Source: a virus. Taken from it: a stretch of DNA of 64,000 nt. The stretch spans positions 32,001 to 96,000 of IMG/VR virus record IMGVR_UViG_3300028412_000004. One strand, written 5' to 3'. The notes under the pieces are model-generated. The model was not told where the DNA came from, ran no database searches, and worked only from the letters and a program-made list of their open reading frames with translations. Shown piece after piece: positions 2,308 through 34,169 of this stretch; positions within the stretch are counted from its first letter, which is position 1; each line of letters begins with the position of its first letter. A program made the translations under genes and the position numbers.

Positions 2308-2745
2308 ATGTATTACATTGAGGAAGCCAGGTTTGTTAAGTCCGCAGGGAGCTCATCCAGCTACACACTGGATCCGCAGAAGCTGCAAGAATGTGAAGGT
2401 ATCATGGATCAGATCTACCAGGAAAATCCTAACTACTGGCCCTACGGGCTGAGCCCCTCCCACATGGATGGAGGTCTCTACATGGTAAGACAGGCATCCG
2501 ACAACTCCCCGGTCGGGTTCGTAGGTTGGCAGGAGCGTAAGCGTGGGCATGAGAAGATCGGATACTACTCGGTTGGTATCCTGCCACAACACCGTAAGAT
2601 GGGTTTCGCTAAAGAGGCGGTTCGGCGTCTCATAGCTAAGAAAGCATCCGGGGTGGATCGTGTGGTGGCTATGATTCTGAAAGGAAACGAAAAAAGCGAA
2701 GGGCTTGCGCGTAATCTAGGGGTTGCGGTGGAGAGCGTCGGATAG
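2308..2745 (+). CDS. GNAT-family acetyltransferase
   Basis: YSVGILPQHRKMGFAKEAV matches the acetyl-CoA binding motif A; start moved to ATG 2308. Confidence 0.75.
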   Translation: MYYIEEARFVKSAGSSSSYTLDPQKLQECEGIMDQIYQENPNYWPYGLSPSHMDGGLYMVRQASDNSPVGFVGWQERKRGHEKIGYYSVGILPQHRKMGFAKEAVRRLIAKKASGVDRVVAMILKGNEKSEGLARNLGVAVESVG

Positions 2746-2755
2746 TGTTCCTGCG

Positions 2756-2792
2756 TTGACACTTACTAAACAGAGCGACAATTTACTATAAT
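2756..2792 (+). promoter_or_regulatory. TTGACA promoter candidate
   Basis: TTGACA 37 nt before ATG 2793; no SD. Confidence 0.5.
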
Positions 2793-5057
2793 ATGAACCC
2801 AACACTTTTAAATGCGATTAAACCGACTGGCTCAACCAAGTCCGCTTCCAAGGCCTCCATCCTAAAGCAGCTGGCGGGTTACAGCGGCGGCGGTGTACTG
2901 GGTTCTGCATTCTACGACCAGCTCCAAGGGCACGACATCCCTACCTCCTTAGACGACATCTCAAAGCAACGCGCTCTGAACTTTTTGTTCAATGCCGCTC
3001 TGGTCGGCGGAGGCTCTAAGATGCTGCGAAGTGGTCTAACCGGCGCAGGTAATACAACGCAGGCTTTAGCAGGATCCGCTACGGTGTTTTCACCTCCGTT
3101 CAAGGACCTTGCGCTGGCCGCCACTAAGCCGGTTATGAAGCTGTCGGATACCATGGATTCTCTCAAGGATAACCGCACCAGTAAGTTTTTAGCTGGTGGC
3201 GCTCTAGGGTTAGGTACTCTGGGGTTGGGCATGTATGGTCTTAGTAAGTATAAAGACCACGTCAAAGACGAAGAGGGTAACATAGAGATAGCACTTCCTA
3301 CTCGGGATCCGAACGACACTGAAACGGTTGTCCGCATGCCTATGTCACAAGTAAATATGTCCAAGAGTATGCGAGATAACATTGAGCGAGATATGCGTCG
3401 ACGTCTCCGGGCTGGCGGTAGTGAACGTACGAAGAAACGCGATCCGCAGACCGGAGACCTTATATCCAAATTTGAATACCAGCAGAAGTATGCAGCCTCC
3501 ACACCTCCTGGATCTATTACGCCTGCACCACCTCCTCCGCCTAATGCGCCTGCTGCAGGAGCTATGCTGCCTGCTAGTGTGCGCCAGCCAGCGCCTGTGG
3601 TTGATGCAGAAGTGCCCCAAGTAGACCCTGCTTTAGAGGCTGCACAGACTGAAGCCGCGCAAGCCGCGCAAGCCATACAGAGTGCCACGATGGAGAGGGA
3701 ACATCTGAAACTGGAGAACGAGAAACTGAAGGCTAAAGCTGAGGTTGCTGCCGGCGTTCCCGAAATACCTAGCGCAGAACTTTCTCCTGCGTTAAAAGCC
3801 CAGGCCTCCAGGGCTATGAAAGCAGTAGGAGGCGTTAAGATGGGCAGCAGCTCCGTATTCCTTCTGGCTCACGCGATCGCGGAAGTATACAGCACAAAGC
3901 GCGCACATTTCAAATCGGCTTCCGCCCGAGTTCCGTCGTCTTTAGGAAACAGTCCCGCTGTAGCCGCTGCGGAGGGTGTTAAGCCCAAAGTGAACAAGAT
4001 TACTAAACAAGTAGGGCCCAACAGTATGGCGCAGCCTGCAACTGCGCGTAACGCCGGAGGAGACTCTAAAGGTTACCTGCCTTACAACCGCGCAGACTAC
4101 GCAAACCTTACCGAATCACAGAAGGCGGAGCAGAGTGCTGCTCTTACTAAATACCACCGAGCGCAGATGGTAGAACCAAACTGGTTCGATAATATGACAA
4201 ACCGCGCAGGACGTGGTGAGAATATTTTCGGCGTAACTGAGGACGCATCAGGTTTTGCGAGAGGTGCCGGTGCTGTAGGAGACTTTTTAATAGGTACCCC
4301 CGTACGAGGTTACACACAGGCCGCTGACGCCTACGGACGCGCCGATGCAGCGCAGAGTCGTGGAGAAGAAATAGGTGCGCGTTACGATGGTTATAAAGGC
4401 CCAGGTGCGAAGCTGTGGAGCGATCTTACTAATAGGATAGAAGGTCGAAACGAATTTAAAGCCTACCAGGAAGAGATGGATGCTGCCAACGCGCTGACTG
4501 GTTTTCAAGGCCGTTTAGGTAAATTAAAAGCCCAAGCAACAGGGGGTCTTACGGCCGCAGGCGCCGCGGCGTCTGTTATACCGGCCACACGTCTTGCTTC
4601 AGGTCTAGGCACAACGGCAAGGGTTGGACTCAGCGCGTCCGGTATGGTGCCCGGGATGCTGTTCTCTAAAGGAGGTGTAAACCCGAACGATATCAGCGAC
4701 AGTGCAGCCAGAGATTACTTCTCACAAGCAGGCTCAGGTAGACCTGACATGCTGATGCCGCGACAGGGTGGAGGTTACTCTAATTATGCGCTCAACAACA
4801 TGAACGGTAATCCTTACCACAACGCCTTTTCGGGCGCGTCCAACTACGGCGGTAACGGTTGGTTAAACGCAGGCGTAAACCAAATCCTGCCGACTGTCAT
4901 GGGATACGCTGGGCAGAACCCTTCGTGGAACAACACAATGTCAGGAATGTATAGCGGCGGGTCACCACAGCGTAATCAAATGATGCAGGCCTTAAACTCT
5001 GGGATCAACCTTGGCGGAGGTTCGTTTAATCAAAAACTCTGGCCCGCAGCAGTATAA
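2793..5057 (+). CDS. putative internal virion/ejection protein with Gly-zipper helices and K-x-A sites
   Basis: 754 aa, Gly/Ala-rich, hydrophobic GxxxG helices, motifs KSAS, KYAA, KSAS, Pro-rich linker. Confidence 0.65.
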   Translation: MNPTLLNAIKPTGSTKSASKASILKQLAGYSGGGVLGSAFYDQLQGHDIPTSLDDISKQRALNFLFNAALVGGGSKMLRSGLTGAGNTTQALAGSATVFSPPFKDLALAATKPVMKLSDTMDSLKDNRTSKFLAGGALGLGTLGLGMYGLSKYKDHVKDEEGNIEIALPTRDPNDTETVVRMPMSQVNMSKSMRDNIERDMRRRLRAGGSERTKKRDPQTGDLISKFEYQQKYAASTPPGSITPAPPPPPNAPAAGAMLPASVRQPAPVVDAEVPQVDPALEAAQTEAAQAAQAIQSATMEREHLKLENEKLKAKAEVAAGVPEIPSAELSPALKAQASRAMKAVGGVKMGSSSVFLLAHAIAEVYSTKRAHFKSASARVPSSLGNSPAVAAAEGVKPKVNKITKQVGPNSMAQPATARNAGGDSKGYLPYNRADYANLTESQKAEQSAALTKYHRAQMVEPNWFDNMTNRAGRGENIFGVTEDASGFARGAGAVGDFLIGTPVRGYTQAADAYGRADAAQSRGEEIGARYDGYKGPGAKLWSDLTNRIEGRNEFKAYQEEMDAANALTGFQGRLGKLKAQATGGLTAAGAAASVIPATRLASGLGTTARVGLSASGMVPGMLFSKGGVNPNDISDSAARDYFSQAGSGRPDMLMPRQGGGYSNYALNNMNGNPYHNAFSGASNYGGNGWLNAGVNQILPTVMGYAGQNPSWNNTMSGMYSGGSPQRNQMMQALNSGINLGGGSFNQKLWPAAV

Positions 5058-5080
5058 ACAACTAGAAGGATCTCAATATT

Positions 5081-8035: not shown

Positions 8036-8073
8036 GCTCCAAGGATTGGATTTTCATACATCCTCGGAAATAC

Positions 8074-8106
8074 GCAAAAACGAGTGTTTTCAGGTTATAT
8101 AAAAAT
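8074..8106 (+). promoter_or_regulatory. island-type bipartite motif GCAAAAA-N13-GTTATATAAAAAT
   Basis: Matches 1155-1187 in sequence and spacing. Confidence 0.55.
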
Positions 8107-8171
8107 GTAGAGTAGTGGTTCTATCTACACCACTTTGTTGGAACATGACCTGTGTGTGTTCCTAAAGCCCG

Positions 8172-8342: not shown

Positions 8343-8404
8343 TCCACTCACCTATAATCAATGGTGCTGACAAAAAAGATCGGAAAAAGGAGCTAAGCAA
8401 AACT

Positions 8405-8797: not shown

Positions 8798-8805
8798 CCT
8801 ACACA

Positions 8806-8850: not shown

Positions 8851-8870
8851 AGCTATCAGCAGAATTAGGC

Positions 8871-21000: not shown

Positions 21001-21061
21001 ACCTCGTCTAGCAAGAGGGACAGAGTTCGGCAAGGATGTCGCAACAACAGGTAAATTTTAA
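18056..21061 (+). CDS. rpoC: RNA polymerase beta' C-terminal fragment (bridge helix, trigger loop), intein-containing
   Basis: SGARG, GTYGAR, RSPLTC..GVCAKC, VGITAAQSISEPVTQ, HTGG. Confidence 0.93.
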   Translation: MKAVDLLIDSLLPEELQGTVKDMDSKSLDILMSAIATKYPDKYEAISKGIADAGRNASYLQGETITLNDMRTPFDKSSILAAMDKELDRVRQANPETFPKTRVKVWEKYNDIMQNMTSQSAREKNNNLAYSVVSGARGKPAQLKAMLATPGYYADYKGDTIPLFVRNSFGQGLRPAEFLAGTYGARTSVLSTKNSTARGGDFAKQLGQSAASTIVTMLDCGVKNGIDLELEDSSMRGRVLARSTAGVPAGTILDKHALGQLRRSKSDTAVVRSPLTCQAREGVCAKCVGQFHNNKLPSVGDAVGITAAQSISEPVTQGALNCLAENTEVLMGDFSYKKIQDVRVGDMVMGADVEAHLFPVKVTHTWDQGLQPVQTYGYKLGQTKDIREVVCTEEHKILQITTYSNAKEGKFNFTPRILKAGRPAGLPSAVLPSGFKEGVGIEEDFATLYGFHLGDGIRLSPECLQASVCVSCACSETAADLKTEMAKLGLTMKKRKRSHDWAVSDLQKGTSLVDAKGQFEKGFHNRYKLLLQSLGALHECYHNKVIAPVVWEWDNKSIAKMIAGFVSADGSVYRVKELTPGVSFGSTALSMLEELKRLLELRFGIYSTQLTRTSLASKSETRKHDGWQFCITRRDQLKKFNELIAPFIPGPKREKLRQYLEEAPKSHYETSTFYKGRRIYAEPKGMTQCYDITVDHKDHLFVLRNGLIVSNSKHTGGMASGKREYSGFDVINQLVQSPEVFPDRATVAHEAGRVESITEAPQGGFYIKLNGKDLYVPAGYDVTAKVGDKVEAGDQLSDGIVDPEDIMKLRGLGSGRRYYAERLNKALTDSGMAVDRRNVELVSRGAFDHVKIQDDEGMPGYLPDDVVSYNKLTSHAAPAKDAKGMRPSQAVGKFLATPALHYSIGTKITPRMADRLEKSHYDSIYTSDREPSFTPQSVRLRTAAHSNPDWLASMATSYLKTQLEHAAIRGDDTNVNSNVHFGPRLARGTEFGKDVATTGKF
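19019..20188 (+). mobile_element. intein with LAGLIDADG homing endonuclease (390 aa)
   Basis: Begins C-LAENTEV, ends LIVSN before Ser+1; motifs YGFHLGDG and AGFVSADG; removal restores TQGALN-SKHTGG. Confidence 0.92.
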
Positions 21062-21074
21062 TAAAGAAAACACT

Positions 21075-22226
21075 ATGAAAAACACTATGAAAAACACTGA
21101 ACTACTCACCTCGTCATTTTCTAGCGCCCCCGCTAAATCTGCTGCTGCTTTTGATGCTGCTACTGCTGCTACTGCTCTTGCTTCTGCCCCTCTAATTGGT
21201 GCAGCTGTTGGCGGGTCTTCTGGCCTTTTAAATGGTCTAATTAACGCACGCCCCGGACGCGTTGCGCAGGATAGTGCTTACGAGACAACTTATGGAACTG
21301 GTACCGGGCTAGGTGCAGGACTGGGTGTACTTGGCGGCGGCAGTCTTGCGGCGGGCCTGACGCACGGTGTAGATAGCAAGGCGCTTCGCGCATTACTTAT
21401 AAGTCTCGGTGTTGTTGGCGGTGGTGTTGGTGGGGCTGGGCTAGGAGCTAAATTAACTGATCTTGCCGTCGCTCGTGACTCGGCCAAGCTAGAGGAACGC
21501 AGGCGTCGCAGGGAAGAGAAGAAGGCATCCAATCAAGAACTACTCGCCGCATCCTTCGTCGTGAAAGAAGCCATGGAGAAGGAGGCATCTCTCGGCAAGC
21601 TGGGACTTTCAGCAGGTAAGGCCCTCTTGAGTGGAGGCGCTAACAAGCTACTATCCGGCGCAGCTAAGACGTGGTCTTTGCCTATGCGATTTATCGGAAG
21701 AGGTATGGGGCCTAAGAGTACAATAGGTAAGGCACTCGATGGAGCAGGCCGGCGCGTCGCTACCGTCGGAGCTAAAGCAACGCGGCGAGCCAGGCATGCT
21801 GAGAATGCGTTCGCTAAAGACGTAGCAAAAAATACTGCGGAAGATGCTGCCAAGAAGGTGGTAAGGCGTCGTGCGCAGAAGGCTATGGGGTATGGAACAG
21901 GTGCAGCAGGTCTGGCGGGTCTTGTAACAGCCCCAGCAGTAGCCGGCGCCACAGGTATACCAGGAGTTGGAGCAGCGACAAACCTTGCCGCCTTCGGCCC
22001 TATGTGGTATGGCGCAGGGAAAGCCTTAGATATAGGCCGTAACGTAAAGCAGCGAGGCGCTCAGCAAGCAACAGGCGCTTTGCTGAATCAGATGCAGAAC
22101 GCTTCGTTTATGGATCGTATGGGTTACCTGATGGCACCTGGAGCAGCTACCGGCAAGGTCCGAGGTATGGCAAACCAATACCTACCAGGATTCGAAAAAT
22201 ATTACAACCAAACATACGGCGGCTAA
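21075..22226 (+). CDS. Gly-zipper putative internal virion protein
   Basis: Gly/Ala hydrophobic helices; KSAA, KKAS, KEAS; start at ATG 21075 or 21087 uncertain. Confidence 0.65.
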   Translation: MKNTMKNTELLTSSFSSAPAKSAAAFDAATAATALASAPLIGAAVGGSSGLLNGLINARPGRVAQDSAYETTYGTGTGLGAGLGVLGGGSLAAGLTHGVDSKALRALLISLGVVGGGVGGAGLGAKLTDLAVARDSAKLEERRRRREEKKASNQELLAASFVVKEAMEKEASLGKLGLSAGKALLSGGANKLLSGAAKTWSLPMRFIGRGMGPKSTIGKALDGAGRRVATVGAKATRRARHAENAFAKDVAKNTAEDAAKKVVRRRAQKAMGYGTGAAGLAGLVTAPAVAGATGIPGVGAATNLAAFGPMWYGAGKALDIGRNVKQRGAQQATGALLNQMQNASFMDRMGYLMAPGAATGKVRGMANQYLPGFEKYYNQTYGG

Positions 22227-22234: not shown

Positions 22235-22270
22235 TTGCCGACAAGCTTACACTAGTATTAAACATTGAAT
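22235..22270 (+). promoter_or_regulatory. TTGCCG promoter candidate, predicted leaderless
   Basis: TTG 36 nt before ATG 22271. Confidence 0.4.
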
Positions 22271-24505
22271 ATGGATACTCTAACTCACGACTGGAAAAAG
22301 AAAGCAGCTGCAGCTTCTAGTGCAGCAGATTCCGAAGCGATCGAAAAAGCTTTCATGGATCAAGCCTACACCTTCGTAGCCAACAAGGCTGGAGATTTGA
22401 TGACAGACCCATACAGACTCGGGTTCGAGGTCGTCTACAAGAACGACGACAACACCCGGATGGTCGGTATATTTGCCTTCCGTATCGATGATGAACTGCT
22501 CTACGTTCCTTGCTTCTTCCTGTCGGGAGAGATCAAAGGCACTGACCTACTTTACCGCCATGACTCCAAGAAGTTCGTCCCGCTCAACCGGGATTGGGTT
22601 GCGTTCCTTTTAGAAAAGTCCGAGGCTTTCGAAGGGAAAGGTATCGACAAGGACCATCTACGTAAGATGCCTACGGATGTTAACCTGCGAGAGCTTGCAT
22701 CGCCGCCTTCCCGAGGCGGACGTGGTATTGGAAAATACGCCTCTGTTGAGGAAAAGCCTACCTTTAAGGATCTAGAGAAAATGGCCGGCGCGCACGTCGA
22801 AGCTTTCAAACCTGTGTTGAAGTCATTCCTGCAAGAGAATGGTATGGAGGCTTTCGACAAGCTTGCAGGTTGGATCGGGGAAAGTCCCCGCTTCACTAAA
22901 ACTCTACTCGAAAACGTAGCTGAGAGCGAGTTCCTACTCGACGATCTCGACTATCCTGTCAAAGAAGCTGCAGCAAAGTCAGGCAGCCTTCGCCTTATTA
23001 CCGGAGCTATCCCAGAGGAAGGGATCAAGTCGGCGTCCGAGGCTGAAGATTTCTTCAAGCGAGGCTTCGCCTTACTGGACGATCGCAGTAAAGATCTTTC
23101 CGTCATCACACAAGACGACACCGAGCAGTTCCAGGGTATCAGCGAAGCTGGTATCTACGACATCATCATGGGGGACGGATCTCTTGAGGAAGCCCTCGTC
23201 ACTAACGGCGAGTGTGTCGCCTTCCCGAGTCGGACGAGTCTATGCCCATCCAGTAACTACGAACCGGGATGCTATGCCAATGAGGTTAATGAAAGTGTTG
23301 TGGTTCTGCGTAAATCCAAGGAGTCTGGAGTACACTCTGAGGTGGTGGGTATTCAAAAGAAGGACATGCATACCACCCTCGCAGACGAGGACATGCTCAA
23401 AAAGACCATGTCCAGCGGAAAGACCTACCGTATTTTCGACACCAAGTCTGGTGCGCTTACAGACCCTATCTACTGTAAGGAATCCAAAACTAAGAATGGC
23501 ATCAAGTGCTACTCTGTATGCACTAGTTACGAGCAACCCTGGACTTTAAAGGTAAATCCTGATTATGATGGGTTCGACTTAGAGGCTTGTGTAATTGGCG
23601 GTAACAACCGGTTTGTGGAAATCGCCGCCAAAATCTCTGCTGTAGAACACTCACCGCAAGACGAAGTCAGGATCGATGTAAAGCCTACGCAGAACGTTGG
23701 TAATATGAAACACTTACTGTTCCGTATCTCGGAGGCGGGATATAAGAGAGCTTGCGTTGTTCGGACTTCGGAAGATTTCTACCGTATACACACCGGATCC
23801 AAATACCTCGCGGAAGAAGTAGGATTCAAATCTGCATGTGTTGGGCTGGCCAAAGGCTTAGCTATTCCAGGTGAGCAGGCTTTGGCTATTATGGACAAGG
23901 TCGCTGCCGATGGTAAGTTTGCATTCTTTATCCAACCTTGTGGGACTAAAGAAGCCTCTGTCATCCGTACTTTAAATGAACCCGCTTTCGAGAATACCTA
24001 CGATAATGACTTTGGTGTGGAGGTTGAGCCTGTGCAGCAATACACCGTTGATACTGAGGCAGACTTTGAGGACGTACCAGAGCAACGTGTGGGCGATGCT
24101 ATGGATCCAAGAGTGCCTGGCGGAATCCCTGGTAATGGAGACAGCGTCCCTATGGATGTCCTCCGATCGGCACCTCCGGAGGCTCTGGCGCAGTATGCAA
24201 AAATGCATAATCTTCCCAATGTGTTCGAGCACGGACTCGTAGGTTCACTTGTAAAGACCTACGACAGTGTCGCCATGATCGATAAATACGTACCTGAGAT
24301 TGAATCAGCTCTCGACAGTATCGGACGCATCCTATTCCTCTTCTGGTGGAAGCCGGGTGATTTCCAGGAAGCCTACGGCGTCGACGATATGACCAATCTT
24401 GAGCATGAGTTACTTTCCAACTTCAAGTCTGTTGGAGAACTCACACTGGACTTGATCAAACGCTCTAAGAAGCACACCAGGGGCACACCACCACTGCCCA
24501 GTTGA
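22271..24505 (+). CDS. large head-region protein of unknown function with many K-x-A sites
   Basis: About 745 aa; KKAA, KYAS, KMAG, KEAA, KSAS, KEAS. Confidence 0.75.
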   Translation: MDTLTHDWKKKAAAASSAADSEAIEKAFMDQAYTFVANKAGDLMTDPYRLGFEVVYKNDDNTRMVGIFAFRIDDELLYVPCFFLSGEIKGTDLLYRHDSKKFVPLNRDWVAFLLEKSEAFEGKGIDKDHLRKMPTDVNLRELASPPSRGGRGIGKYASVEEKPTFKDLEKMAGAHVEAFKPVLKSFLQENGMEAFDKLAGWIGESPRFTKTLLENVAESEFLLDDLDYPVKEAAAKSGSLRLITGAIPEEGIKSASEAEDFFKRGFALLDDRSKDLSVITQDDTEQFQGISEAGIYDIIMGDGSLEEALVTNGECVAFPSRTSLCPSSNYEPGCYANEVNESVVVLRKSKESGVHSEVVGIQKKDMHTTLADEDMLKKTMSSGKTYRIFDTKSGALTDPIYCKESKTKNGIKCYSVCTSYEQPWTLKVNPDYDGFDLEACVIGGNNRFVEIAAKISAVEHSPQDEVRIDVKPTQNVGNMKHLLFRISEAGYKRACVVRTSEDFYRIHTGSKYLAEEVGFKSACVGLAKGLAIPGEQALAIMDKVAADGKFAFFIQPCGTKEASVIRTLNEPAFENTYDNDFGVEVEPVQQYTVDTEADFEDVPEQRVGDAMDPRVPGGIPGNGDSVPMDVLRSAPPEALAQYAKMHNLPNVFEHGLVGSLVKTYDSVAMIDKYVPEIESALDSIGRILFLFWWKPGDFQEAYGVDDMTNLEHELLSNFKSVGELTLDLIKRSKKHTRGTPPLPS

Positions 24506-24508
24506 GTT

Positions 24509-25435
24509 ATGAATGCTACGCGTATTAAACAACTGGCTTGGTATCTGCCGGACGGAGACACAAATCCTCTCCGCAGAACCCAGTTCAAAGAAAATGAAAA
24601 CATCCCAGAGTGGTTGGAGGGTGACGTGTTGCATTTCACAGCCTGCTACTCCGATTTAAAGTTCGGATGGACACTCGTAAGATCCCTGGCTTCTCGCGGC
24701 GCTCCGATGCCTTGCATCGTAGACGGTGATGATACGGTCCTCTGGAGAGCGTACTACCACCTAAACGGTTTCCATGATAGCATTATAGCGTCTGCCATGC
24801 AGTTAACGACAACTGCTATGGAGCAGACCCGAATGTCTCTGGAAGCAGCCCTACTCACCTCGCAAGGTGTGGACGATAAAGAAAGCTGGCTGCAGGTAGT
24901 TTGCAAAGAGCATACACTTTCCAGGGACGTGGTGATTGCTTACGAGAAGCTTTTCTTCAACATACTCGATCGCCTCGGCGATGAGAAATTTATACGCCAG
25001 ACCGTATACCCGGGATCAAGGATGGTGGAGATGATGGAGAATTACATTCAAAACGAAGGTATTGGATCCATCATGCGCCGCACTGGTTATAACAACGGCC
25101 TCAGCGATCTGATGTATCTCATGGGCGACCGTCGCAACCCCTTGAACAACTCAGACAGCAGACAGTCTGCTGCTATGCTGGAAAAGACCATGATGGTTAA
25201 CGGACTTTACCTTGCCCGAAACGGCTGGTTGAACCAAATGCAAAACTCCGCAGGACTTATGCACTCAAGACAGCTCATGCAGGCGGCCAAAGCCGGCGGC
25301 GAGTCTGATCAACCTGTATCGCCCATCTCATCGCTTGGTGATATTCTTATAGGAGAGATCCAAACCATGCACGAGAAAGAGAGTGGAGAACGTGCAATAC
25401 TATCTCGAAATGTTATGCGGCCCGAGAATACTTAA
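24509..25435 (+). CDS. hypothetical protein
   Basis: 308 aa ORF, 3 nt after the previous stop. Confidence 0.7.
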   Translation: MNATRIKQLAWYLPDGDTNPLRRTQFKENENIPEWLEGDVLHFTACYSDLKFGWTLVRSLASRGAPMPCIVDGDDTVLWRAYYHLNGFHDSIIASAMQLTTTAMEQTRMSLEAALLTSQGVDDKESWLQVVCKEHTLSRDVVIAYEKLFFNILDRLGDEKFIRQTVYPGSRMVEMMENYIQNEGIGSIMRRTGYNNGLSDLMYLMGDRRNPLNNSDSRQSAAMLEKTMMVNGLYLARNGWLNQMQNSAGLMHSRQLMQAAKAGGESDQPVSPISSLGDILIGEIQTMHEKESGERAILSRNVMRPENT

Positions 25436-25451
25436 CTGCGGCAATACAAGC

Positions 25452-25486
25452 TTGATATAATATTACTTTCACACTTTAATGCCATT
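25452..25486 (+). promoter_or_regulatory. TTGATA..TTTAAT promoter, predicted leaderless
   Basis: 17-nt spacer; hexamer ends 6 nt before ATG 25487. Confidence 0.6.
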
Positions 25487-27010
25487 ATGAATCAGCAAGA
25501 AGCCATCGGTTATATACAGGATATTCTTCCCCAGATCTCTCACAGCTCAGAAGCTGAGGATGTTCTACTAAAGTTCGCACACGCTAAGAACTTAGCACCT
25601 GCGCAAGTAGAAAGGCTTGGACAAGTCTTCAACAACGCCAAAACGCTCACATTCCTCGAGAAATCGGCGAACAGAGGAGGATCGTTCCCGGTGATAGATA
25701 CAGAGAACCTCGTAGCACGCTATACTGACCTTCCAACTAAACGCAGCATTCAGCAACCAGGCCGTAGTGCTGAGGTGAGCGAGTGGTGTGGTGACGACCT
25801 TTCAAAGTCGGCTTCAGAATACGAGGAGCTTTCCTCTTTCCCCTCGCTGGAAGCGTTGCAAAGCTCCGAGCCTCGCTTCGTTGGAGAGCCTGATGCGTGC
25901 ACAAGTAAAGAAGCGTCCGAATTGGAGGAGCGTATACAATTCTTCCGCAAGCATGCGGCTCATGCTTGTATGCGTATCGACGAAGAATTCCTCGACATGT
26001 TTGAAGACGAGCAAAGAGATATCATCCGGGATAAGGTTGCTTCCATAGTAGACTCTGGGCGTTCTTCGACTCTTGACTTTAAGTCTGCCATCAAAGCAGC
26101 TGCCTACTTACTGGGACCAGAAACCTACGGGGAAGTCCAAGGTATTTTGAAAAGCGCTTCCAACGGCCGGTTAAATGCTGTTGATATGGACTTCAAGCAA
26201 CTTGACGAGGAATACGCGTTCAACCCAGAAGCCCGGCAAACGGAGGAAGTGGTTGATCTGCACGACAAACTGGCATCCATTCTTCATTCTTACGATCTGC
26301 TAAGAATCGCCCGTGAAGAACGTGAAAGTATCATAGGAGAAAAAAGCGCCGCCGTCGCCACTGGTTACGGCGATACTGCGCAGCAAAGTAAAGCTAAGAT
26401 GCATTACAACCAGTCTACACACAGTCCTCAAAGCTCCAGTAAGACGACTAAAAGTAACCCAAAAGGTAAACCACGTGGCACCCCGTCCAGCCGCGGTAAT
26501 GGTGGCAATGGTGGTGGTGGCAATGGTGGTGGTGGCAATGGTGGTGATGACAAGGACAAGAAGGACAAGAAGGATAACAAAAAAAACACCGCAGACGAAA
26601 TCCTTGAATCTCTAGTCGGTGTCATGAACCCCTCGAATGTAAACAGTAAAGTTAAAGAACTCATCAACGATTTTAAATCGCCGAACAAGAGTCAGTATGC
26701 CGTAGACACCGCGTTATCAGACTCTGCAGCCCACGTGGCTCTGACCAAAGCTCTACGAGATCCGATTGTATCGGAGGCGGATCCAGAAACAGTCGTTTCG
26801 TTGTTTAACTCTATGCGTGCTGCTAACCCTGCGTTCGTGGAGGACCCAAACAATCTTGTTATGGCACTGCGTGAAGCGGTGCAGTATGACTCCATCCCGA
26901 TTCACACACTTAAGGAGTTGCTGGACATGAGCCTGTCACAGGCTAAGATTAAAGATCTTAACGACAAGGCATATCAATCTAACTACGGAAACGTTCCACG
27001 TAAGGCATGA
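25487..27010 (+). CDS. head-region protein with many K-x-A sites and a Gly/Asn, Lys/Asp low-complexity linker
   Basis: KSAN, KSAS, KEAS, KHAA, KSAS, KSAA; GNGGNGGGG..DDKDKKDKK. Confidence 0.7.
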   Translation: MNQQEAIGYIQDILPQISHSSEAEDVLLKFAHAKNLAPAQVERLGQVFNNAKTLTFLEKSANRGGSFPVIDTENLVARYTDLPTKRSIQQPGRSAEVSEWCGDDLSKSASEYEELSSFPSLEALQSSEPRFVGEPDACTSKEASELEERIQFFRKHAAHACMRIDEEFLDMFEDEQRDIIRDKVASIVDSGRSSTLDFKSAIKAAAYLLGPETYGEVQGILKSASNGRLNAVDMDFKQLDEEYAFNPEARQTEEVVDLHDKLASILHSYDLLRIAREERESIIGEKSAAVATGYGDTAQQSKAKMHYNQSTHSPQSSSKTTKSNPKGKPRGTPSSRGNGGNGGGGNGGGGNGGDDKDKKDKKDNKKNTADEILESLVGVMNPSNVNSKVKELINDFKSPNKSQYAVDTALSDSAAHVALTKALRDPIVSEADPETVVSLFNSMRAANPAFVEDPNNLVMALREAVQYDSIPIHTLKELLDMSLSQAKIKDLNDKAYQSNYGNVPRKA

Positions 27011-27396
27011 AGTTGAGTAAGACTATACGTTTTTACAACAACGCCTACCACGTGATCTTAAAGATTCAGTGGTCTGGCGATAGCCTGAGCGAAAAAGAAA
27101 AAGAGGTGTTTGAAGCCGGCGCAGAGGTAGAACTGGACGTAGGTGGGTGTTTTGAATCAGAAAGGCCTGATGTTGATTTCTGTATACCTGCAGACATACG
27201 CAAGTTCCCTTTCAAAGCAGAGATACGTCAAGTATTTGGAGGCTCGGATGATTGCTCCCTTGAAAGAGCCAACCTTAAGGCTATAGTTTACTTCACACAA
27301 CTGAGAGATCGGATAGTTAACGCACGTGACAGACTGATCGCAGAACACTCCAGACAAACTCAAAATTCAAAAGAAGCCTATTATGACAAATACTGA
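27007..27396 (+). CDS. hypothetical protein
   Basis: 129 aa, overlaps both neighbours. Confidence 0.65.
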   Translation: MKLSKTIRFYNNAYHVILKIQWSGDSLSEKEKEVFEAGAEVELDVGGCFESERPDVDFCIPADIRKFPFKAEIRQVFGGSDDCSLERANLKAIVYFTQLRDRIVNARDRLIAEHSRQTQNSKEAYYDKY

Positions 27397-28300
27397 GATG
27401 CAGAAGGAAGCCTTTGCTGATAGGATCAGCGATCTTACAGACACCGCAAAAGATAAGCTGGGGGAAGTCGGGACACGTATGGGGGACTTGGATCCTAAAA
27501 TACTAACAGCCCTTCTTGCAAGCGGCGCTGGTGCAGGCCTTCTAGGTGGCTACCTAACTTCACGTGGACGTGAGCGTCGTGGTGAATCTTCAGGAGCCCG
27601 GCGTCGGCGCATTCTACGCAACGCGCTGCTGACGGCTGGCGCTGGCGCTGGCGCTGCTGGGTTGGGTATGTATGGCCTTAACCAGTTAAATACTGCACTC
27701 CCTGAAGGCGATGAGGATCCTGCAAGTAAGTTCTTCACCTCTAACCTTATGCGCGGCGGTTACGGTTACACCGGTTACCAGCTCGGTGACATGATGTCTG
27801 GTATGGGAGCGCAGGGTTCGCGCGCAAAAACTATTTTAGGTAATGGAGGATTTGCTGGATATGAATCACGCATGTCCAACTCCGCAGCGCGTAACCAACT
27901 ACGCTCACTTGCTGGAACTACCAACAAAACCGACCTGGCAAGGCTTACGCGGGCCGGAGACAAGGCGCTAATGCGTGCAGGCTTGGATCCTACTAAGGTG
28001 CAAATGAAAGGATTAACTCCAGAAGAAGCATTCCCTTGGCTCTTAGGCAAGACTAAGGATGTGCGCGGTCGTATTGGAGCTTCTCCCCTAGGACAAACAA
28101 TTTCTAACACCGCAAAAAAAATCCCTGGGGTGAGTAAGGTGCCTAAAACGCTCGGCGGTCTTAGAGGTGTCGCCAACGCGGCCGGTGGTAGAAAGGCAGG
28201 ACTTGGAGTAGCTCTAGCAGGTTTGTTACTACCGGAAGTCCTCGGCACTGCTAAATCCTTGGGAGGTTTAGCAACGTCTAACCCTTTTAAAGGAGAGTAA
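27383..28300 (+). CDS. Gly-zipper putative internal virion protein
   Basis: N-terminal KEAF; helices ASGAGAGLLGG, TAGAGAGAAGLG, AGLGVALAGLL. Confidence 0.65.
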   Translation: MTNTEMQKEAFADRISDLTDTAKDKLGEVGTRMGDLDPKILTALLASGAGAGLLGGYLTSRGRERRGESSGARRRRILRNALLTAGAGAGAAGLGMYGLNQLNTALPEGDEDPASKFFTSNLMRGGYGYTGYQLGDMMSGMGAQGSRAKTILGNGGFAGYESRMSNSAARNQLRSLAGTTNKTDLARLTRAGDKALMRAGLDPTKVQMKGLTPEEAFPWLLGKTKDVRGRIGASPLGQTISNTAKKIPGVSKVPKTLGGLRGVANAAGGRKAGLGVALAGLLLPEVLGTAKSLGGLATSNPFKGE

Positions 28301-28306
28301 AGCATT

Positions 28307-29815
28307 ATGATTAAAGTACACTATCAGGATGATCAGGACGAGCTGCGCCAAGCTTGTGGCGGCGTCATGACGTCCCTAATCGAAACAGACACCGGTATAA
28401 AGTCCGCAGCCTCAGATCTAATCGACGCAGGCACCCTGGAACGCTATCGCCCGGACAAGGACCACTTCATGATACACTGTATCGCTATGGGTGATCAAGA
28501 AACTTACGGGCCTAATAAAAATGGCGATGGGTGGCCTAAGGAAGCTCTCGAGCGGAGACATCAAACTTTCGTCGAGTGTGGTCACATGTTTGAGGAACAC
28601 CGCAACCGGGATCCTAAGAAGAAGATAGGCGATATCAAATACGCGGCCTACGACCCCAACGGCATGCGCCGTGTCGAACTTATTATGCATGGGCATAAGA
28701 AGAAAGCTTCTGAGTATTACGAGAAGGCTCGCAGCGGGGAAGAGTTATCTTTTTCTATGTCTGCGCGAGTTCCAGAGGACATTTGCTCATGCTGTGATAA
28801 TCACGCCAAATCTCCGGCGAGTTACTGCGATCACTTAAAGTATGCCATGCTGCAATACAAGCCGGAGTTCAAGAAGTATGCTTTCGCTATAAACCCAGAC
28901 CCGACTTTCTTCGACAACTCTGTAGTTGGACGTCCTGCGGATCGTATCGCTCGCTACCTGGAATACAAATTTAACGATGTTGATATGCGCAAAGCGGCCT
29001 CTGACGGAGGTCAGGTTATCACTGGTACAGACTGGGCGGAGTTCGAAGGCGTGGCAATTCCAGACGGTTATGCTATTGGAGGTCCTAAGGGAGATCTACT
29101 GCGTAAGATGGCCGCCCTGGAAGCAGAGGTCGCACAACTCTCACAAGAGGATACGAAGCACAACCATAAGGCTGCTTTCGCATTCAACTGCGCACCTCTT
29201 GCCATGGCTGAAAACGTTACAGCCAAGGAGCTGGATGCTATGAAGGATGTTCGTCCAGGCACGCTATTCAGAGAAATGGCTAAGGCCGGCTGTGTGCTTC
29301 CGTTTCCTGCATTCGCCGCGTACTTATCCAACAGTGATGCTAAATCAGCCTCAGAAGATGCTGTCACTAAAAGAGCCGCGCAACTTATGCCCGGTATCTT
29401 TTCTAAGTTGTCGGAGTGCGGATGCTCCGGGGATATGATGAACATGTTTGATGCTGACTCTGAATTCAGTTCCAGTTGCGACCCTGCACGCAGTGATCTT
29501 ATAAATGAAATGATGTCTAAAGCAGACGAGCGTTTCGCAGTAGATCCGGAAGGGGTTAAGAACCGCGTGACAGTCATTATAATTAAACAAGGTAGCAACC
29601 TTAACATCGACCAGTATCGTGCAGACTGTGTTGCTGCTGGTAAGGAACTTGTTAAGAACGCTTCTTTCGATGCGCGGGCTTCTGTGCTTGCAGAAGCCTA
29701 CGCGCAGTATCAACTTTCAGCAATTACAGATATCGAAAATATAAAAGGCGCGTCTATAGATGAAGCTCAAAGGCTAGTATTTATCGGACATAACGCTCAC
29801 TGTATTTTCGGTTGA
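28307..29815 (+). CDS. prohead maturation protease with Cys/His cluster
   Basis: NKNGDGWP, EEHRN, SFSMS then CSCC..YCDH; sits upstream of scaffold and capsid genes; SD AAAGGAG. Confidence 0.75.
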   Translation: MIKVHYQDDQDELRQACGGVMTSLIETDTGIKSAASDLIDAGTLERYRPDKDHFMIHCIAMGDQETYGPNKNGDGWPKEALERRHQTFVECGHMFEEHRNRDPKKKIGDIKYAAYDPNGMRRVELIMHGHKKKASEYYEKARSGEELSFSMSARVPEDICSCCDNHAKSPASYCDHLKYAMLQYKPEFKKYAFAINPDPTFFDNSVVGRPADRIARYLEYKFNDVDMRKAASDGGQVITGTDWAEFEGVAIPDGYAIGGPKGDLLRKMAALEAEVAQLSQEDTKHNHKAAFAFNCAPLAMAENVTAKELDAMKDVRPGTLFREMAKAGCVLPFPAFAAYLSNSDAKSASEDAVTKRAAQLMPGIFSKLSECGCSGDMMNMFDADSEFSSSCDPARSDLINEMMSKADERFAVDPEGVKNRVTVIIIKQGSNLNIDQYRADCVAAGKELVKNASFDARASVLAEAYAQYQLSAITDIENIKGASIDEAQRLVFIGHNAHCIFG

Positions 29816-29862
29816 CAGTTTTTATAATCACCAGCAAAGTTAATCCACAACCAATAAACACC

Positions 29863-30984
29863 ATGCCAAGAAAATACGAAGACATCACAAAGAGAGTAGC
29901 CGACATTCAGACTAAACGAGCTTCGGCTGCTAAGTCTGCTTCGGAGACTCCTGACGCAACCGACCCTACTGAAAAAGGAACGGTTACTCCTCCTAACCAC
30001 CCTGATGGTGACAGCGCTGCGAAGAAGAATCTTCCAGAAGGCACTGCCAACACTAAGGGCGATACCGCGCTTCCCGCAGGCACGACCACCAACCCATCTG
30101 GACACGGTGAGAATGTGCCGGGAGATGTTTGCAGTGGGGATGCTAAGGACGTGCAGGCTACTAAGCCCAACGACCCAATTTCAAAAATCGCCGGTATTCT
30201 AGGACGCATTAATAAGCTCCGTGATACTGATGCCGATGCTAAGCAAGCTGGCGCACCTGCTTCCAAGACAGAACGTGAGTCTGAGGGTTCGCAACTCTCT
30301 TACGAGGTTCGCGTCAAGCTCGCCAATGAGATCTGCGCTTCTGAGGATGGCATGCTATTAGCAGAGCAAATTCTTAAACAAGCGTCCGGACGGGATGCCG
30401 CTCTTGAACTGATTAAGTCAGCGCACGAAGAATACGGTGCGCATCTGCAGCACATCCACCAAGAGGACGAGCAACAAAAGCAGGCGTCGCAAGAAATGGA
30501 AGCCTTGAATGGTTACTACGACGAGCTGACCAAGAATGCTTCTGAGGAGGATATGCAGAAGATCGCCAAGTTTCAGAAAGTTCACTCTGCTGTAATTGAC
30601 TCGCTCGAATACGACTTCGAGAAACAAGCTTACTTCAAATCCGCCATGGATGCCGCAGCCATGGAAGACGCTATGGTCGCAGGTGCTGCTCCTGAAGAAG
30701 CAATGATTCCTGAAGGTGGCGAAGAGCCCCTTTCTCCGGAAGCCATCATTGAACTTCTGGAAGCGCTTGTAGCATCTGGGCAGATGGATGAGGCGACTGC
30801 AGCCGCAGTAGCAGCTGAGATTCTCGGAGGTGGTGAAATGCTGCCTCCTGAAGCAGGTATGGAAGCAATGCCTCCTGAAGCAGGTATGGAAGCAATGCCT
30901 CCTGAAGCAGGTATGGAAGCAATGCCTGAGGAAGTTAAGGCTGCCAACGTAATCCTCGCAGAGCTAGAAGCGGAGAGTAAGTAA
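29863..30984 (+). CDS. probable scaffolding protein
   Basis: Acidic, helical, between protease and capsid; about nine K-x-A sites; start moved to ATG 29863. Confidence 0.6.
   Translation: MPRKYEDITKRVADIQTKRASAAKSASETPDATDPTEKGTVTPPNHPDGDSAAKKNLPEGTANTKGDTALPAGTTTNPSGHGENVPGDVCSGDAKDVQATKPNDPISKIAGILGRINKLRDTDADAKQAGAPASKTERESEGSQLSYEVRVKLANEICASEDGMLLAEQILKQASGRDAALELIKSAHEEYGAHLQHIHQEDEQQKQASQEMEALNGYYDELTKNASEEDMQKIAKFQKVHSAVIDSLEYDFEKQAYFKSAMDAAAMEDAMVAGAAPEEAMIPEGGEEPLSPEAIIELLEALVASGQMDEATAAAVAAEILGGGEMLPPEAGMEAMPPEAGMEAMPPEAGMEAMPEEVKAANVILAELEAESK
30844..30924 (+). repeat. three 27-nt units coding PPEAGMEAM
   Basis: Exact tandem copies. Confidence 0.95.
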
Positions 30985-31019
30985 GCTCCGCTGCATCATC
31001 CCCGCACCGATTTATAATC

Positions 31020-31475
31020 ATGGCCAAAAAAGATACATACAAGAAAGCTGAAGTAGATCCTATTTTACAGGAAACTATGGAAGCGACGCAAGTACTCCTG
31101 GAGGACAACCAAAAGCAAGCGCAAGAGATTGAAGCCCACAAGGCTAGAATCTTAGAGCTTGAAAAGGCTTCCAATGTCTCGGAGGAAAGTAAGATCAACT
31201 TGGAAAAGGTAGCAGGCACAGACGGTCCAAAACTGGACATGAGCCTGGTCAACAACCTTGTGGATCAATTGGCCGACCTGGGCTTCGTTGAGACGAGCAA
31301 AAGTGCTCGCGAGGAGCTTATAAATCACATCAAGGAAGACCCTTCAACTCACGCGCTGAAGCTCGCTTCACGCGTTATAAAACTTTCTTCTCCAGCCCCG
31401 GACTCGGGGTTTGGCGTTGAGAAATCGGCATCGGCGCCCGAAACGGAAAATTCAGACTGGCAAGAATGGATCTAA
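31020..31475 (+). CDS. scaffold-like coiled-coil protein
   Basis: Coiled-coil N-terminus; KVAG and KSAS; position before the decoration and capsid genes. Confidence 0.55.
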   Translation: MAKKDTYKKAEVDPILQETMEATQVLLEDNQKQAQEIEAHKARILELEKASNVSEESKINLEKVAGTDGPKLDMSLVNNLVDQLADLGFVETSKSAREELINHIKEDPSTHALKLASRVIKLSSPAPDSGFGVEKSASAPETENSDWQEWI

Positions 31476-31522
31476 GTTACGCAACCGGTGATTTACACTA
31501 ACAAAACAACACAGGACTAGTT

Positions 31523-32080
31523 ATGCCAACATACGGTACAATACAGAGGGTAAACCCCTCGAAACCACGGCTGGAAGTTCTCAGAGGGTTTAATCCCAAT
31601 GAGCCTTTTCAGCAGTCGGCTACGCACCCTGTCCAAGATGATGTTAACATCGCGAGCGGACAACTCATCGTGTTAGTCGGGGAAGAACTTTCCCCTACTG
31701 GATACGAATGGATTGTTTGCCCGACTGATTACTCTGGAGGCGCGGTATACGTGGCTCAAAAGGATTCAGAAGATGAAGACATTTTATCTGCTGGCAATAT
31801 GTCCGGGCTCTCATGCGCCGGCCAATACGAATTAGAAATGGCTTTCTTTGATGGAGCTGCAACTGACTACACAGAAAGCGTCTACCTGACGCCTTCCGAC
31901 ACAGTTGCAGGTAACGTTATGCCTATAGCAGCAGCAGCAACCACCAATTTCCCGGCGGCTGCAGAAACTGTAATCGGTCAGATCACCCGCAAGGCTGGCA
32001 GCACCGATGGTATCAACTCCAACGTAGCCCCTACGGACGTCATCACGTGGCGTACAGTGTTCATCCCTCGCACAGCGTAA
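31523..32080 (+). CDS. probable capsid decoration/cement protein
   Basis: beta-rich 185 aa protein directly upstream of the major capsid gene. Confidence 0.55.
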   Translation: MPTYGTIQRVNPSKPRLEVLRGFNPNEPFQQSATHPVQDDVNIASGQLIVLVGEELSPTGYEWIVCPTDYSGGAVYVAQKDSEDEDILSAGNMSGLSCAGQYELEMAFFDGAATDYTESVYLTPSDTVAGNVMPIAAAATTNFPAAAETVIGQITRKAGSTDGINSNVAPTDVITWRTVFIPRTA

Positions 32081-32109
32081 GCTAGTGCTACAACACAAGG
32101 AATAACATT

Positions 32110-33057
32110 ATGTCACAAGAAGAACCACAAATCGAAAACGTGGAAGTACTGAATCGCGAACTTCTAGACTCCATCCGGCAAGCTCCGGACGGCGTCCTTA
32201 CGAAGCAAGCCTCGGCAGCAACGAATATGATCCGCCGCAAAATCCGTGAGAACGGGTTCAGCCGGGTTATTATTCCGCACAAAACCGTGTCCGATGACGA
32301 CCTCTCGTATCTCCCGAATACCGAGCTCCCTGTAGTAGTTGAAGAAATGGAACCAGAATCTACTGGTGCAAAATCCATCTCCTTCAACGACTCCGCGGAT
32401 ACTCGTTTCTACCGTAGTGATAAGTTCGTCGTTATCTTTAACAAGATCACGACAGACGAATACACCAAGAATGTTGATGAGCTGCGTTCCTACAAGGGCG
32501 ATCTCCGAGGCGTTGTCACCGACAATGCCCTTAAGGAAATCCAAACCGAAGAGGACCGCGCATTCATCAGCACCGTCGATCGTCTCGTCGGTACTATTGA
32601 CACTGCTGATGGCGCCACTGGCGGTATTCAACACCATGGTATCGCAGGCGGTATTACCCGGTCATCCTACGTTGATTCGATCTCCTTCTTAGAGGACCGC
32701 GATCTCATCAACGGTATTTTCCTCATGAACCGTAAGACCGCGAAAGCGTTCCTTAAGTTCAAGCGGGACGAAATCGGGGGTGACCTGTCTCAGTCATTGT
32801 TCACTGATGGTCTAAGCTCTCTCTCCGAGGGTAAGGTCATGAGTGTGCGTCACATCTTCACCATCAAGGGTGATTTAGTTCCAAACGATGTTGTTTACCA
32901 ATTCGCGGAACCAAACTACCTTGGACGTGCTTACATTCTTCAGAATGTAACCATGTATGTAGAGAAGAAGAAGGACATCCTTCGATTCTCCGCCATGGAA
33001 AAGATCGGCGTAACCATTGCCAACGTGGCAGCGGTTAACAAGGTCGACTTCAGCTAA
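32110..33057 (+). CDS. major capsid protein (HK97 fold)
   Basis: 315 aa; backbone-helix-like ALKEIQTEEDRAFI; followed by a strong terminator; KQAS near the N-terminus. Confidence 0.8.
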   Translation: MSQEEPQIENVEVLNRELLDSIRQAPDGVLTKQASAATNMIRRKIRENGFSRVIIPHKTVSDDDLSYLPNTELPVVVEEMEPESTGAKSISFNDSADTRFYRSDKFVVIFNKITTDEYTKNVDELRSYKGDLRGVVTDNALKEIQTEEDRAFISTVDRLVGTIDTADGATGGIQHHGIAGGITRSSYVDSISFLEDRDLINGIFLMNRKTAKAFLKFKRDEIGGDLSQSLFTDGLSSLSEGKVMSVRHIFTIKGDLVPNDVVYQFAEPNYLGRAYILQNVTMYVEKKKDILRFSAMEKIGVTIANVAAVNKVDFS

Positions 33058-33080
33058 GCGATAGTCTAAAACCACATTCC

Positions 33081-33118
33081 AAAGGCCGCTCCTTCACCGG
33101 GGCGGCCTTTTCATTTTC
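33081..33118 (+). terminator. rho-independent terminator after the capsid gene
   Basis: AAAGGCCGCTCC / GGGGCGGCCTTT stem followed by a T-rich tail. Confidence 0.85.
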
Positions 33119-33122
33119 ACAC

Positions 33123-33158
33123 TTGCTCTAGCGGCTATGTGAGTCGTATTATCTCCCT
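33123..33158 (+). promoter_or_regulatory. TTGCTC..TATTAT promoter, predicted leaderless
   Basis: 18-nt spacer; hexamer ends 6 nt before ATG 33159. Confidence 0.55.
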
Positions 33159-34169
33159 ATGATTACACAGGATGGAAACTTTATCACAGGGTTCGTCAAA
33201 CAATGCTTTGATGCAGGTCTCTCGGAAGACGAGACCACTCTTCTTTACGATGCTGCCGTGTGGCGTGAAGACTTGAAGGATCCTGACTTCAACAAAGGCT
33301 TCAAACAAGCCAGCGAGGACGGCGGGTTGAATCCATTCTCCGTCATGAGCCCTACAGCCAAAGGTGTAGGCGGTGCAGGCGCGGGTGCGGCAATAGGCAC
33401 TGGTATAGGCGGTTTAATCGCCCTTAGTAAAGGTAAATTAGGATTAGGCAAGCGTCTGCTAGGGTTCGGTGCTTCTGCCGGCGCGGCTGGTGGTGTTACG
33501 GGCGGAATTGTAGGCTCCACCTTGGGAAAAGGCGGGAAGAAACCCGAAGAATGGGTACCAGACTACCTCGTTCCCGGCATGTCGGACGTTAAGTCGCATA
33601 CCGGCGGCGGAGGCAACGTCTTTGATAGTATGTCTGGTTACGCCGATATAGGCGGAGCTGCAACGGCAGCTGCAACGACATCTGGTAACGCCGTACAACC
33701 TGTATTGTATGGACGCCAACTTACGCAAGAGCTGAGTTCTCTCGAGAAACAAATGGCTTCCTTAGAGGCTGGTATGTCCTCCGGGGAAGGTTTGTCGGGC
33801 GCTTTATCTAACCGCCGCATCCAGTCACAGCTGGACGCTTTAGAGAATAGACGATCCAAGCTTATGCGTGGAATAGGTGACACTTACAATGGAGTCCGCC
33901 AAGACCAAGCCAGATCCGCCAAGACGATAGCCGCAAGACTGGCCGCGGTAGAGGGAGAGATCGAAAGTAGGTCTGGTCGCGCTGGAGATATTGCAGCCTG
34001 GCTGGAAGCAACACGTAGTGGTACTCCAGGAGACCTCCCAGGACGTCTCTGGAACAAGGTGGTCGGAGCTGAACAGACTGCTTCTAATCTCAGTTACGAA
34101 ATGCAGCGGCTTCAGGAGGAACGTAAAAGACTTCTCGCCCTTCAAAGTCGTGTAGGTGGTATGCTCTAA
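33159..34169 (+). CDS. Gly-zipper plus coiled-coil putative internal virion protein
   Basis: KQAS followed by GAGAGAAIGTGIGG and GASAGAAGGVTGG helices. Confidence 0.65.
   Translation: MITQDGNFITGFVKQCFDAGLSEDETTLLYDAAVWREDLKDPDFNKGFKQASEDGGLNPFSVMSPTAKGVGGAGAGAAIGTGIGGLIALSKGKLGLGKRLLGFGASAGAAGGVTGGIVGSTLGKGGKKPEEWVPDYLVPGMSDVKSHTGGGGNVFDSMSGYADIGGAATAAATTSGNAVQPVLYGRQLTQELSSLEKQMASLEAGMSSGEGLSGALSNRRIQSQLDALENRRSKLMRGIGDTYNGVRQDQARSAKTIAARLAAVEGEIESRSGRAGDIAAWLEATRSGTPGDLPGRLWNKVVGAEQTASNLSYEMQRLQEERKRLLALQSRVGGML

Follow-up and report, generated by a model that had tools for sequence, protein, structure and literature searches.

A Lys-x-Ala motif enriched in head-module proteins of an uncultured tailed phage is a candidate substrate code of a gp21-fold prohead protease

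Prohead-protease codes are known for T4 and for the phiKZ-type giant phages, and in both cases the protease cuts after Glu. They have been central to working out which of the head proteins undergo processing, degradation or injection. T4 gp21 (MEROPS S77; PDB 5jbl) cuts after Glu in (L/I)-x-E, and its substrates are gp23, gp22, gp67, gp68 and the internal proteins, whereas phiKZ gp175 and SPN3US gp245 (MEROPS S80) cut after Glu in (S/A/G)-x-E, a motif that identifies many processed head proteins. The giant-phage proteases cleave themselves, and their substrates can carry several sites within long propeptides (PMC10052503). In herpesvirus assemblin/pUL26 (MEROPS S21) a linker with a release site joins the N-terminal protease to a C-terminal assembly domain (PMC4498786), and Ala is followed by Ser or Thr at the scissile bond, as in the PrV cleavage sites YLQA-T and VQA-S (PMC4498786). 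Here we describe a short motif, K-x-A-[S/A/G], in the head module of a virus known from metagenomic sequence. The analysed stretch (hereafter the window) is 64,000 nucleotides long and covers bases 32001-96000 of the 125,531-bp genome record IMGVR_UViG_3300028412_000004; nearly all of its genes lie on the plus strand. An initial annotation of the window had read the motif as a capsid-protease cleavage site with Lys-x-Ala specificity and as a tag for head cargo. Megablast of the head module against named phages gave no match, leaving it without a nucleotide-level relative among them, and Pfam and PHROGs searches with its open reading frames (ORFs) returned nothing useful beyond a weak Phage_capsid match and a PHROG of unknown function.

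Enrichment of K-x-A-[S/A/G] in the head module

For each ORF, the number of K-x-A-[S/A/G] copies was compared with the expectation from its amino-acid composition (the product of the residue frequencies) and with 5000 composition-keeping shuffles of the sequence; the 61 plus-strand ORFs of the window were translated, and the genome-wide count was made on 148 crude ORFs. Five adjacent plus-strand ORFs, named here by their start positions in the window (22265, 25487, 28307, 29812 and 31020), contained 36 copies against 4.6 expected, an enrichment of about 8-fold (x7.8). They account for 36 of the 75 copies in the whole genome, and the rest of the 125.5 kb was at chance (39 observed, 42.8 expected), in line with the earlier impression that the motif is sparse in tail, baseplate and enzyme genes. 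All copies that the initial annotation had listed in the capsid, scaffold and protease ORFs were present, together with KIAG in the scaffold-position protein and KYAA, KKAS and KGAS in the protease.

The motif also emerged when it was not chosen by eye. When every gapped word of two or three residues in the five ORFs was scanned, K.AS ranked first (20 against 1.4 expected, P about 1e-16), and the words ranked below it were mostly its sub-words. The mirror form [SAG]A.K, the shifted forms KA.[SAG] and K..A[SAG], and variants with Arg or Glu reached only x0.7-1.9 in the same ORFs. The enriched proteins are rich in Ala and Lys and largely helical, as would suit a signal that has no role in recognition and reflects the structure or composition of helical scaffold-like proteins rich in Ala, Lys and Glu, through helix capping for example. 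We regard this explanation as very improbable, since none of the 5000 composition-keeping shuffles reached the counts of ORFs 22265, 25487, 28307 and 29812, the mirror and shifted forms were at chance, and the motif also occurs in a disordered linker and at a conserved place in the capsid protein, which is not a scaffold (see below). At the motif sites both Lys codons and all four Ala codons are in use, indicating that selection acts on the protein and not on the DNA. Ser codons show a separate pattern: among the 37 motif copies of ORFs 22265-32110, the Ser after K-x-A is encoded by TCN in 21 of 21 cases and never by AGY, the class that provides 28% of Ser codons in these ORFs. The all-TCN usage fits single-base drift among Ser (TCN), Ala (GCN) and Gly (GGN).

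Applied to T4 as a positive control, the same method recovered [LI].E in gp22 (16 against 5.7 expected), gp21 and gp68, and not in tail proteins. The signal in T4 was weaker than that of K.A[SAG] in this phage (x2.8 in gp22 compared with x6-8). The over-representation, in scaffold and core proteins, of a short motif whose determinants lie two residues apart is shared with T4, but the motif itself is not: in the five ORFs the T4-type [LI].E was at x1.3 and the phiKZ-type [SAG].E at x1.2, neither of them enriched in this test, which concerns enrichment and not cleavage. Adding a hydrophobic residue two positions before Lys sharpened the contrast between the five ORFs and the remainder, with 16 copies of [LIMVF].K.A[SAG] against 1.1 expected in the former and 16 against 11.0 elsewhere. 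In its extended form the motif reads hydrophobic-x-K-x-A-[S/A/G].

Motif sites in the protease and capsid proteins

ORF 28307 (28307..29815, plus strand) encodes a protein of 502 amino acids (aa) with nine motif copies against 1.12 expected (KSAA, KAAS, KMAA, KSAS, KRAA, KNAS, KYAA, KKAS and KGAS), and it has more than 270 metagenomic homologs. Sequence searches said little about its function. It matched no Pfam family at E <= 0.01 and a single PHROG, phrog_2774, of unknown function; searches of the PDB with the sequence and with its family profile found nothing relevant, and a cluster look-up showed no homolog held at NCBI with an informative name. An AlphaFold2 (AF2) model built on 36 homologs (pLDDT confidence score 83) consists of a mixed alpha/beta domain (aa 1-221), a disordered linker (aa 222-254), which is the only stretch with pLDDT below 50, and a helical C-terminal domain (aa 255-502). 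The sole coherent Foldseek match of the model was T4 gp21 (5jbl), with probability 1.0, and alignment with the program VIA gave Z 12.8 and a root-mean-square deviation of 2.7 A over 144 of 165 residues. The herpesvirus proteases of HSV-1, HCMV, EBV and KSHV were far more distant, at Z 4.6-5.7 over about 105-120 aa, a range in which unrelated folds also reach Z about 5. By its modelled fold, ORF 28307 is a prohead protease precursor, in agreement with the capsid protease named in the initial annotation. The gene order, with 28307 followed by 29812, 31020, 31523 and the HK97-fold capsid gene 32110, is that of a head module as in gp21-type systems, and T4 likewise has protease, then scaffold, then capsid protein. 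T4 gp21 differs in that the protein here is 502 aa long, carries a long helical C-terminal domain and a CxxC-x10-CxH insert, and has no Pfam match.

This insert, at window positions 28784-28834 (protease residues 160-176), directly follows an invariant Ser-Met-Ser. Its three cysteines (C160, C163 and C174) are invariant, and H176 is conserved to at least 90%. The motif recurs in gp222 of Salmonella phage Arash and gp19 of Bacillus phage G, and resembles a zinc knuckle set into a protease of the gp21 type. The family profile also had a faint match in the PDB to a zinc-ribbon DUF35 protein (E = 1.8). Four homologs (P0004, P0044, P0079 and P0129) are 747-883 aa long and contain Hint or LAGLIDADG (intein) Pfam domains, indicating that the protease gene hosts an intein in some relatives.

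The enrichment is a property of the protease family: the 36 homologs (38-55% identity) have on average 7.2 copies against 0.89 expected. Two of the sites hold their positions. KSAA at residues 32-35 (28400..28411, plus strand), a predicted N-terminal self-processing site, is present in 35 of the 36 homologs, with K32 and A34 invariant, and aligns with KQAA of Arash gp222. KAAS at residues 229-232 (28991..29002, plus strand), a predicted site for releasing the catalytic from the C-terminal domain, is present in 34 of 36, with A231 invariant, and lies within the disordered linker. These sites bracket the catalytic domain, one just before it and one just after, and the further copies in the C-terminal domain vary between homologs. 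H98, S150 and S152 are also invariant in all 36. An N-terminal protease, a linker with a predicted release site and a C-terminal domain recall the layout of herpesvirus assemblin, although the structural similarity to the herpesvirus enzymes is far weaker than that to gp21.

ORF 32110 (32110..33057, plus strand) encodes the major capsid protein, of 315 aa, to which an HK97 fold was assigned from an AF2 model (pLDDT 77). VIA aligned the model to HK97 Prohead I/II, encapsulins and SaPI1 capsids with Z about 15 over 215-235 aa, and the Pfam Phage_capsid match was sub-threshold (22.3 bits against a cut-off of 24.2). By count the capsid motif is not significant (1 against 0.24 expected); it is its position that is conserved. 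The window copy is KQAS at residues 32-35 (32203..32214, plus strand), and K.A[SAG] was found at aa 27-34 in 118 of 120 capsid homologs (54-100% identical), in 106 of the 120 as the only copy in the whole protein. A hydrophobic-x-K-x-A sequence occurs at this site in 14 of 14 orthologs, including those of Arash and of Vibrio phage D69. In most homologs the motif lies one residue earlier than in the window, with the length of the segment unchanged, which argues for selection on the motif itself. KQAS coincides with a drop in model confidence (pLDDT below 50 at aa 35-37) between the helices of residues 11-24 and 38-48 (N-arm); the VIA alignments begin at model residues 29-43, and those to HK97 Prohead II at 29-33. 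The first 29 residues are also less conserved than the remainder (0.48 compared with 0.73-0.76). KQAS is thus a predicted maturation site, and a hypothetical cut after A34 would shorten the capsid protein from 315 to 281 aa. Loss of an N-terminal piece from the capsid protein would resemble T4, and would differ from herpesviruses, with the capsid protein itself among the predicted substrates and with many sites in each substrate.

The initial annotation had also called the motif a cargo tag. T4 internal proteins bear an N-terminal capsid-targeting sequence, and the confinement of the motif to head-module proteins would suit an uncut binding or targeting tag by which scaffold, capsid interior or portal loads proteins into the head. 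We consider such a tag improbable. Seven to nine copies per protein, with turnover of their positions between relatives, fit cleavage better, as do the conserved pair on either side of the protease domain and the lone copy before the capsid fold; copy numbers of this order fit sites of degradation or trimming and not a targeting signal.

Related phages and the proposed position of the cut

Between this capsid protein and its counterparts in Salmonella phage Arash (181 kb) and the Vibrio phages D69, D181 and D148 (about 187 kb), sequence identity is 24-26%. Identity in the catalytic domain is 39% to Arash gp222 and 35% to the D69 protein. More distant sequence homologs of this domain, at 31-33% identity, are gp19 of Bacillus phage G (31%) and the N-terminus of a 1286-aa protein, gp86, of cluster C mycobacteriophages (32-33%). 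As a replication set we used 20 related viral contigs in which the protease is 28-50% identical. Summed over orthologs, observed against expected counts were 125/21.3 for 22265, 75/14.8 for 25487, 139/17.8 for 28307, 100/15.1 for 29812 and 8/0.8 for 31020. In the same loci, orthologs of the RNA polymerase subunit, of ORFs 27007, 27383 and 31523, and of the genes after the capsid gene were at chance.

The cultured phages Arash and D69 have the same head-module synteny. In Arash, the motif is enriched in gp220 (7/0.87), gp223 (6/0.95; syntenic to 29812), gp225 (5/0.51), gp221 and gp222, with a single copy, at residue 27, in the capsid protein. In D69, the scaffold-position gene 0271 has 10 copies against 0.91 expected and the protease 5 against 0.76, and the capsid protein again has a single copy at residue 27. 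The virion proteins identified in Arash, 116 in all, include gp218 and gp220-gp226 (PMC10585845). Phage G gp19, which has been termed a head maturation protease with no motif given (preprint 10.1101/2024.12.16.628780), has four K-x-A-[SAG] copies flanking its domain, against 0.5 expected; the phage G capsid protein (282 aa) has none. Mycobacterium phage ET08 (cluster C) showed no K-x-A-[SAG] enrichment, so that possession of the catalytic domain does not always go with the code. ET08 gp86 (phrog_2774) is a 1286-aa hypothetical protein with a protease-like N-terminal domain, encoded just upstream of the major head protein; as for phage G gp19, no motif has been published for it.

Taken together, we consider it quite likely that K-x-A-[S/A/G], preferably with a hydrophobic residue at -2 of Lys, is the substrate code of the phage's own maturation protease, the N-terminal domain of ORF 28307. 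Of the Lys-x-Ala specificity proposed earlier, the enrichment, the conservation in the clade, the flanking of the catalytic domain and the single occurrence ahead of the capsid core are borne out; the cleavage itself we infer from them. Several points weigh against this reading. The catalytic His and Ser cannot be mapped onto T4 gp21 by sequence, the hhalign match being too weak (E = 0.13). Some copies, such as the one at K111, which is in a strand of the AF2 model, lie inside the folded protease domain; such copies are probably not cut, so that not every copy would be a site. Because several of the related loci nearly duplicate one another, the clade-wide sums overstate independence. The position of the scissile bond is proposed by analogy only. 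Finally, the Arash paper and its supplement mention neither a protease nor cleavage and give no peptide-level data (PMC10585845).

The environment of the motif bears on where such a cut would fall. Over 724 clade-wide K.A sites, hydrophobic residues were over-represented at position -2 before Lys (Met x3.3, Phe x2.4, Leu x2.3), and Ser (x4.3) and Ala (x1.8) at the position after Ala. Lys and Ala of the motif are co-dependent: hydrophobic-x-K without Ala at +2 was not enriched (x0.78 in the window, x0.95 in the clade), and A-S without the preceding Lys stood at x0.54 and x0.73, respectively. If the motif is cleaved, the bond is fairly likely, by analogy, to be Ala|Ser, with a hydrophobic residue at P5, Lys at P3, Ala at P1 and Ser, Ala or Gly at P1'. 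The cut is placed there because the hydrophobic residue, Lys and Ala are spaced i, i+2 and i+4 and would lie on one face of an extended strand (P5, P3 and P1), because the herpesvirus relatives cleave after Ala with Ser or Thr next, and because the residue after Ala varies between subclades, Lys and Ala being constant. The alternation of determinants is shared with T4 (L/I)-x-E, phiKZ (S/A/G)-x-E and herpesvirus x-A|S; the PrV sites have Leu or Val two residues before Ala, where the motif has Lys.

A cut by the same protease after Lys, hydrophobic-x-K|x-A with the hydrophobic residue at P3 and Lys at P1, would account for the 2.3-3.5-fold enrichment of hydrophobic residues two before Lys and would reproduce the P3-x-P1 spacing of T4 (L/I)-x-E|. 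The final HK97 cut, after Lys103, offers a parallel. We nevertheless judge this placement unlikely: hydrophobic-x-K shows no enrichment of its own once the Ala is missing, Ala would become an obligatory P2' and Ser a P3' residue, which would be unusual for a gp21-type fold, and the herpesvirus relatives cleave after Ala.

In the most distant subclade (L018-L021; protease 28-34% identical), capsid sites have the form K-x-A-E or K-x-A-Q, with neither Ser nor Gly after Ala, and in the head proteins of this subclade Asn, Ala and Gly are favoured over Ser after K.A. As far as these sequences tell, this suggests that the preference at the residue after Ala has shifted there.

With Ala|Ser as the preferred bond, head maturation could proceed as follows. 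The 502-aa precursor would co-assemble into the procapsid with the products of ORFs 32110, 29812, 31020, 25487 and 22265, and self-cleavage near residues 34 and 231 would release the catalytic domain of the protease. A 34-residue N-terminal propeptide would be removed from the capsid protein. The scaffold-position protein would be cut to small peptides able to exit the shell, and the site-rich parts of ORFs 22265 and 25487 would be trimmed, with their C-terminal domains staying in the head.

Further candidate substrates and meaning for the lineage

ORF 29812 (29812..30984, plus strand) encodes a 390-aa Ala/Glu-rich protein whose gene position suggests a scaffold. It has seven copies against 1.19 expected (KRAS, KSAS, KQAG, KQAS twice, KNAS and KIAG), and cutting at the motifs would yield predicted fragments of 6 to 147 aa. 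ORF 22265 (22265..24505, plus strand; listed as 22271 in the initial annotation) is a predicted processed head protein of 746 aa with nine copies against 1.04, seven of them within aa 1-258 and the remaining two at aa 545 and 562. It has no Pfam, PHROG or Atlas assignment and is weakly similar to Arash gp218. ORF 25487 (25487..27010, plus strand), likewise a predicted processed head protein, is 507 aa long and has eight copies against 0.96, all between aa 107 and 289, so that a C-terminal piece of about 219 aa is predicted to survive; its C-terminus is weakly similar to Arash gp221. Arash gp218 is an abundant virion protein and gp221 is also a virion protein (PMC10585845). ESM Atlas models of ORFs 22265 and 25487 were poor (pLDDT 0.37 and 0.41) and gave no usable matches. 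BLASTP of the Arash portal, gp204, against this genome had no match, and the portal was not located; the Arash protein matched by ORF 22265 is gp218 and not the portal. The small head-module protein of ORF 31020 (31020..31475, plus strand; 151 aa) has three copies against 0.33 (p = 0.003).

Outside the window, a 365-aa ORF at window coordinates 67753-68850 (genome 99753-100850) has four copies against 0.69 expected, and in all four the position at -2 is hydrophobic. The gene is remote from the head module, and its product is a likely further substrate of the protease or a head cargo protein, the best candidate for a processed head protein with a gene outside that module. The initial annotation had expected about ten marked proteins; support extends to the five ORFs, the capsid protein and this one. 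Three ORFs that it had named were at chance: 2793 (2793..5057, plus strand; 3 against 2.0, p = 0.32), 21075 (21036..22226, plus strand; 3 against 1.95, p = 0.31) and 33159 (33159..34169, plus strand; 1 against 0.69, p = 0.51; 3 against 1.3 in two orthologs summed).

Another, its ORF 2308, was borderline, with two copies against 0.17 expected (p = 0.01 before correction for 148 ORFs), both fitting the extended motif. It is a GNAT acetyltransferase (2287..2745, plus strand; Pfam Acetyltransf_3 and Acetyltransf_1), not counted as a substrate. Its presence in the window could suggest that the motif is a site of post-translational modification, either Lys acetylation by this enzyme or modification of Ser. 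This is the least probable of the explanations considered: no link was found between the GNAT gene and the head module, in a comparison that did not extend to whether Arash and D69 also encode the enzyme, and the placement of the motif around the protease domain would be left unexplained.

Like the phiKZ-type phages, this phage encodes a multisubunit RNA polymerase. In phiKZ-type phages the virion polymerase subunits are processed; the subunits in the window (ORFs 5081 and 18056) have zero K-x-A-[SAG] copies. An 828-aa ORF at window positions 39014-41500 has weak, sub-threshold Pfam matches to DUF2345 and DUF3540 and could encode a tail spike or a hub protein of the baseplate.

Prohead proteases whose short code marks out scaffold and internal proteins are a well-known kind of system; what would be new, on the sequence evidence, are the specificity, the clade and the herpesvirus-like Ala|Ser feature. 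Literature searches found no published Lys-x-Ala code for a phage protease, a result that is not proof of absence since most subscription journals were not covered. We see about an even chance that hydrophobic-x-Lys-x-Ala|Ser is the code of a gp21-fold prohead protease used by a very large lineage of tailed phages, for the most part uncultured, that takes in Arash-like, Vibrio D69-like and possibly phage-G-like members; this would be the first phage maturation protease predicted to cut after Ala, in the manner of herpesvirus assemblins, and not after Glu. The motif is conserved across a clade with hundreds of metagenomic members, and the cultured Salmonella phage Arash and Vibrio phage D69 make the proposal directly testable. 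If the proposal is true, gaps in tryptic virion proteomes would be explained: because the motif Lys is itself a trypsin site, mature N-terminal peptides would be semi-tryptic and missed by standard searches. The processed head proteome would become predictable from sequence alone, including distant cargo such as the ORF at 67753-68850. The Ala|Ser specificity and the protease-linker-scaffold layout would then look like old features common to the phage and herpesvirus enzymes, providing a functional link between their maturation proteases.

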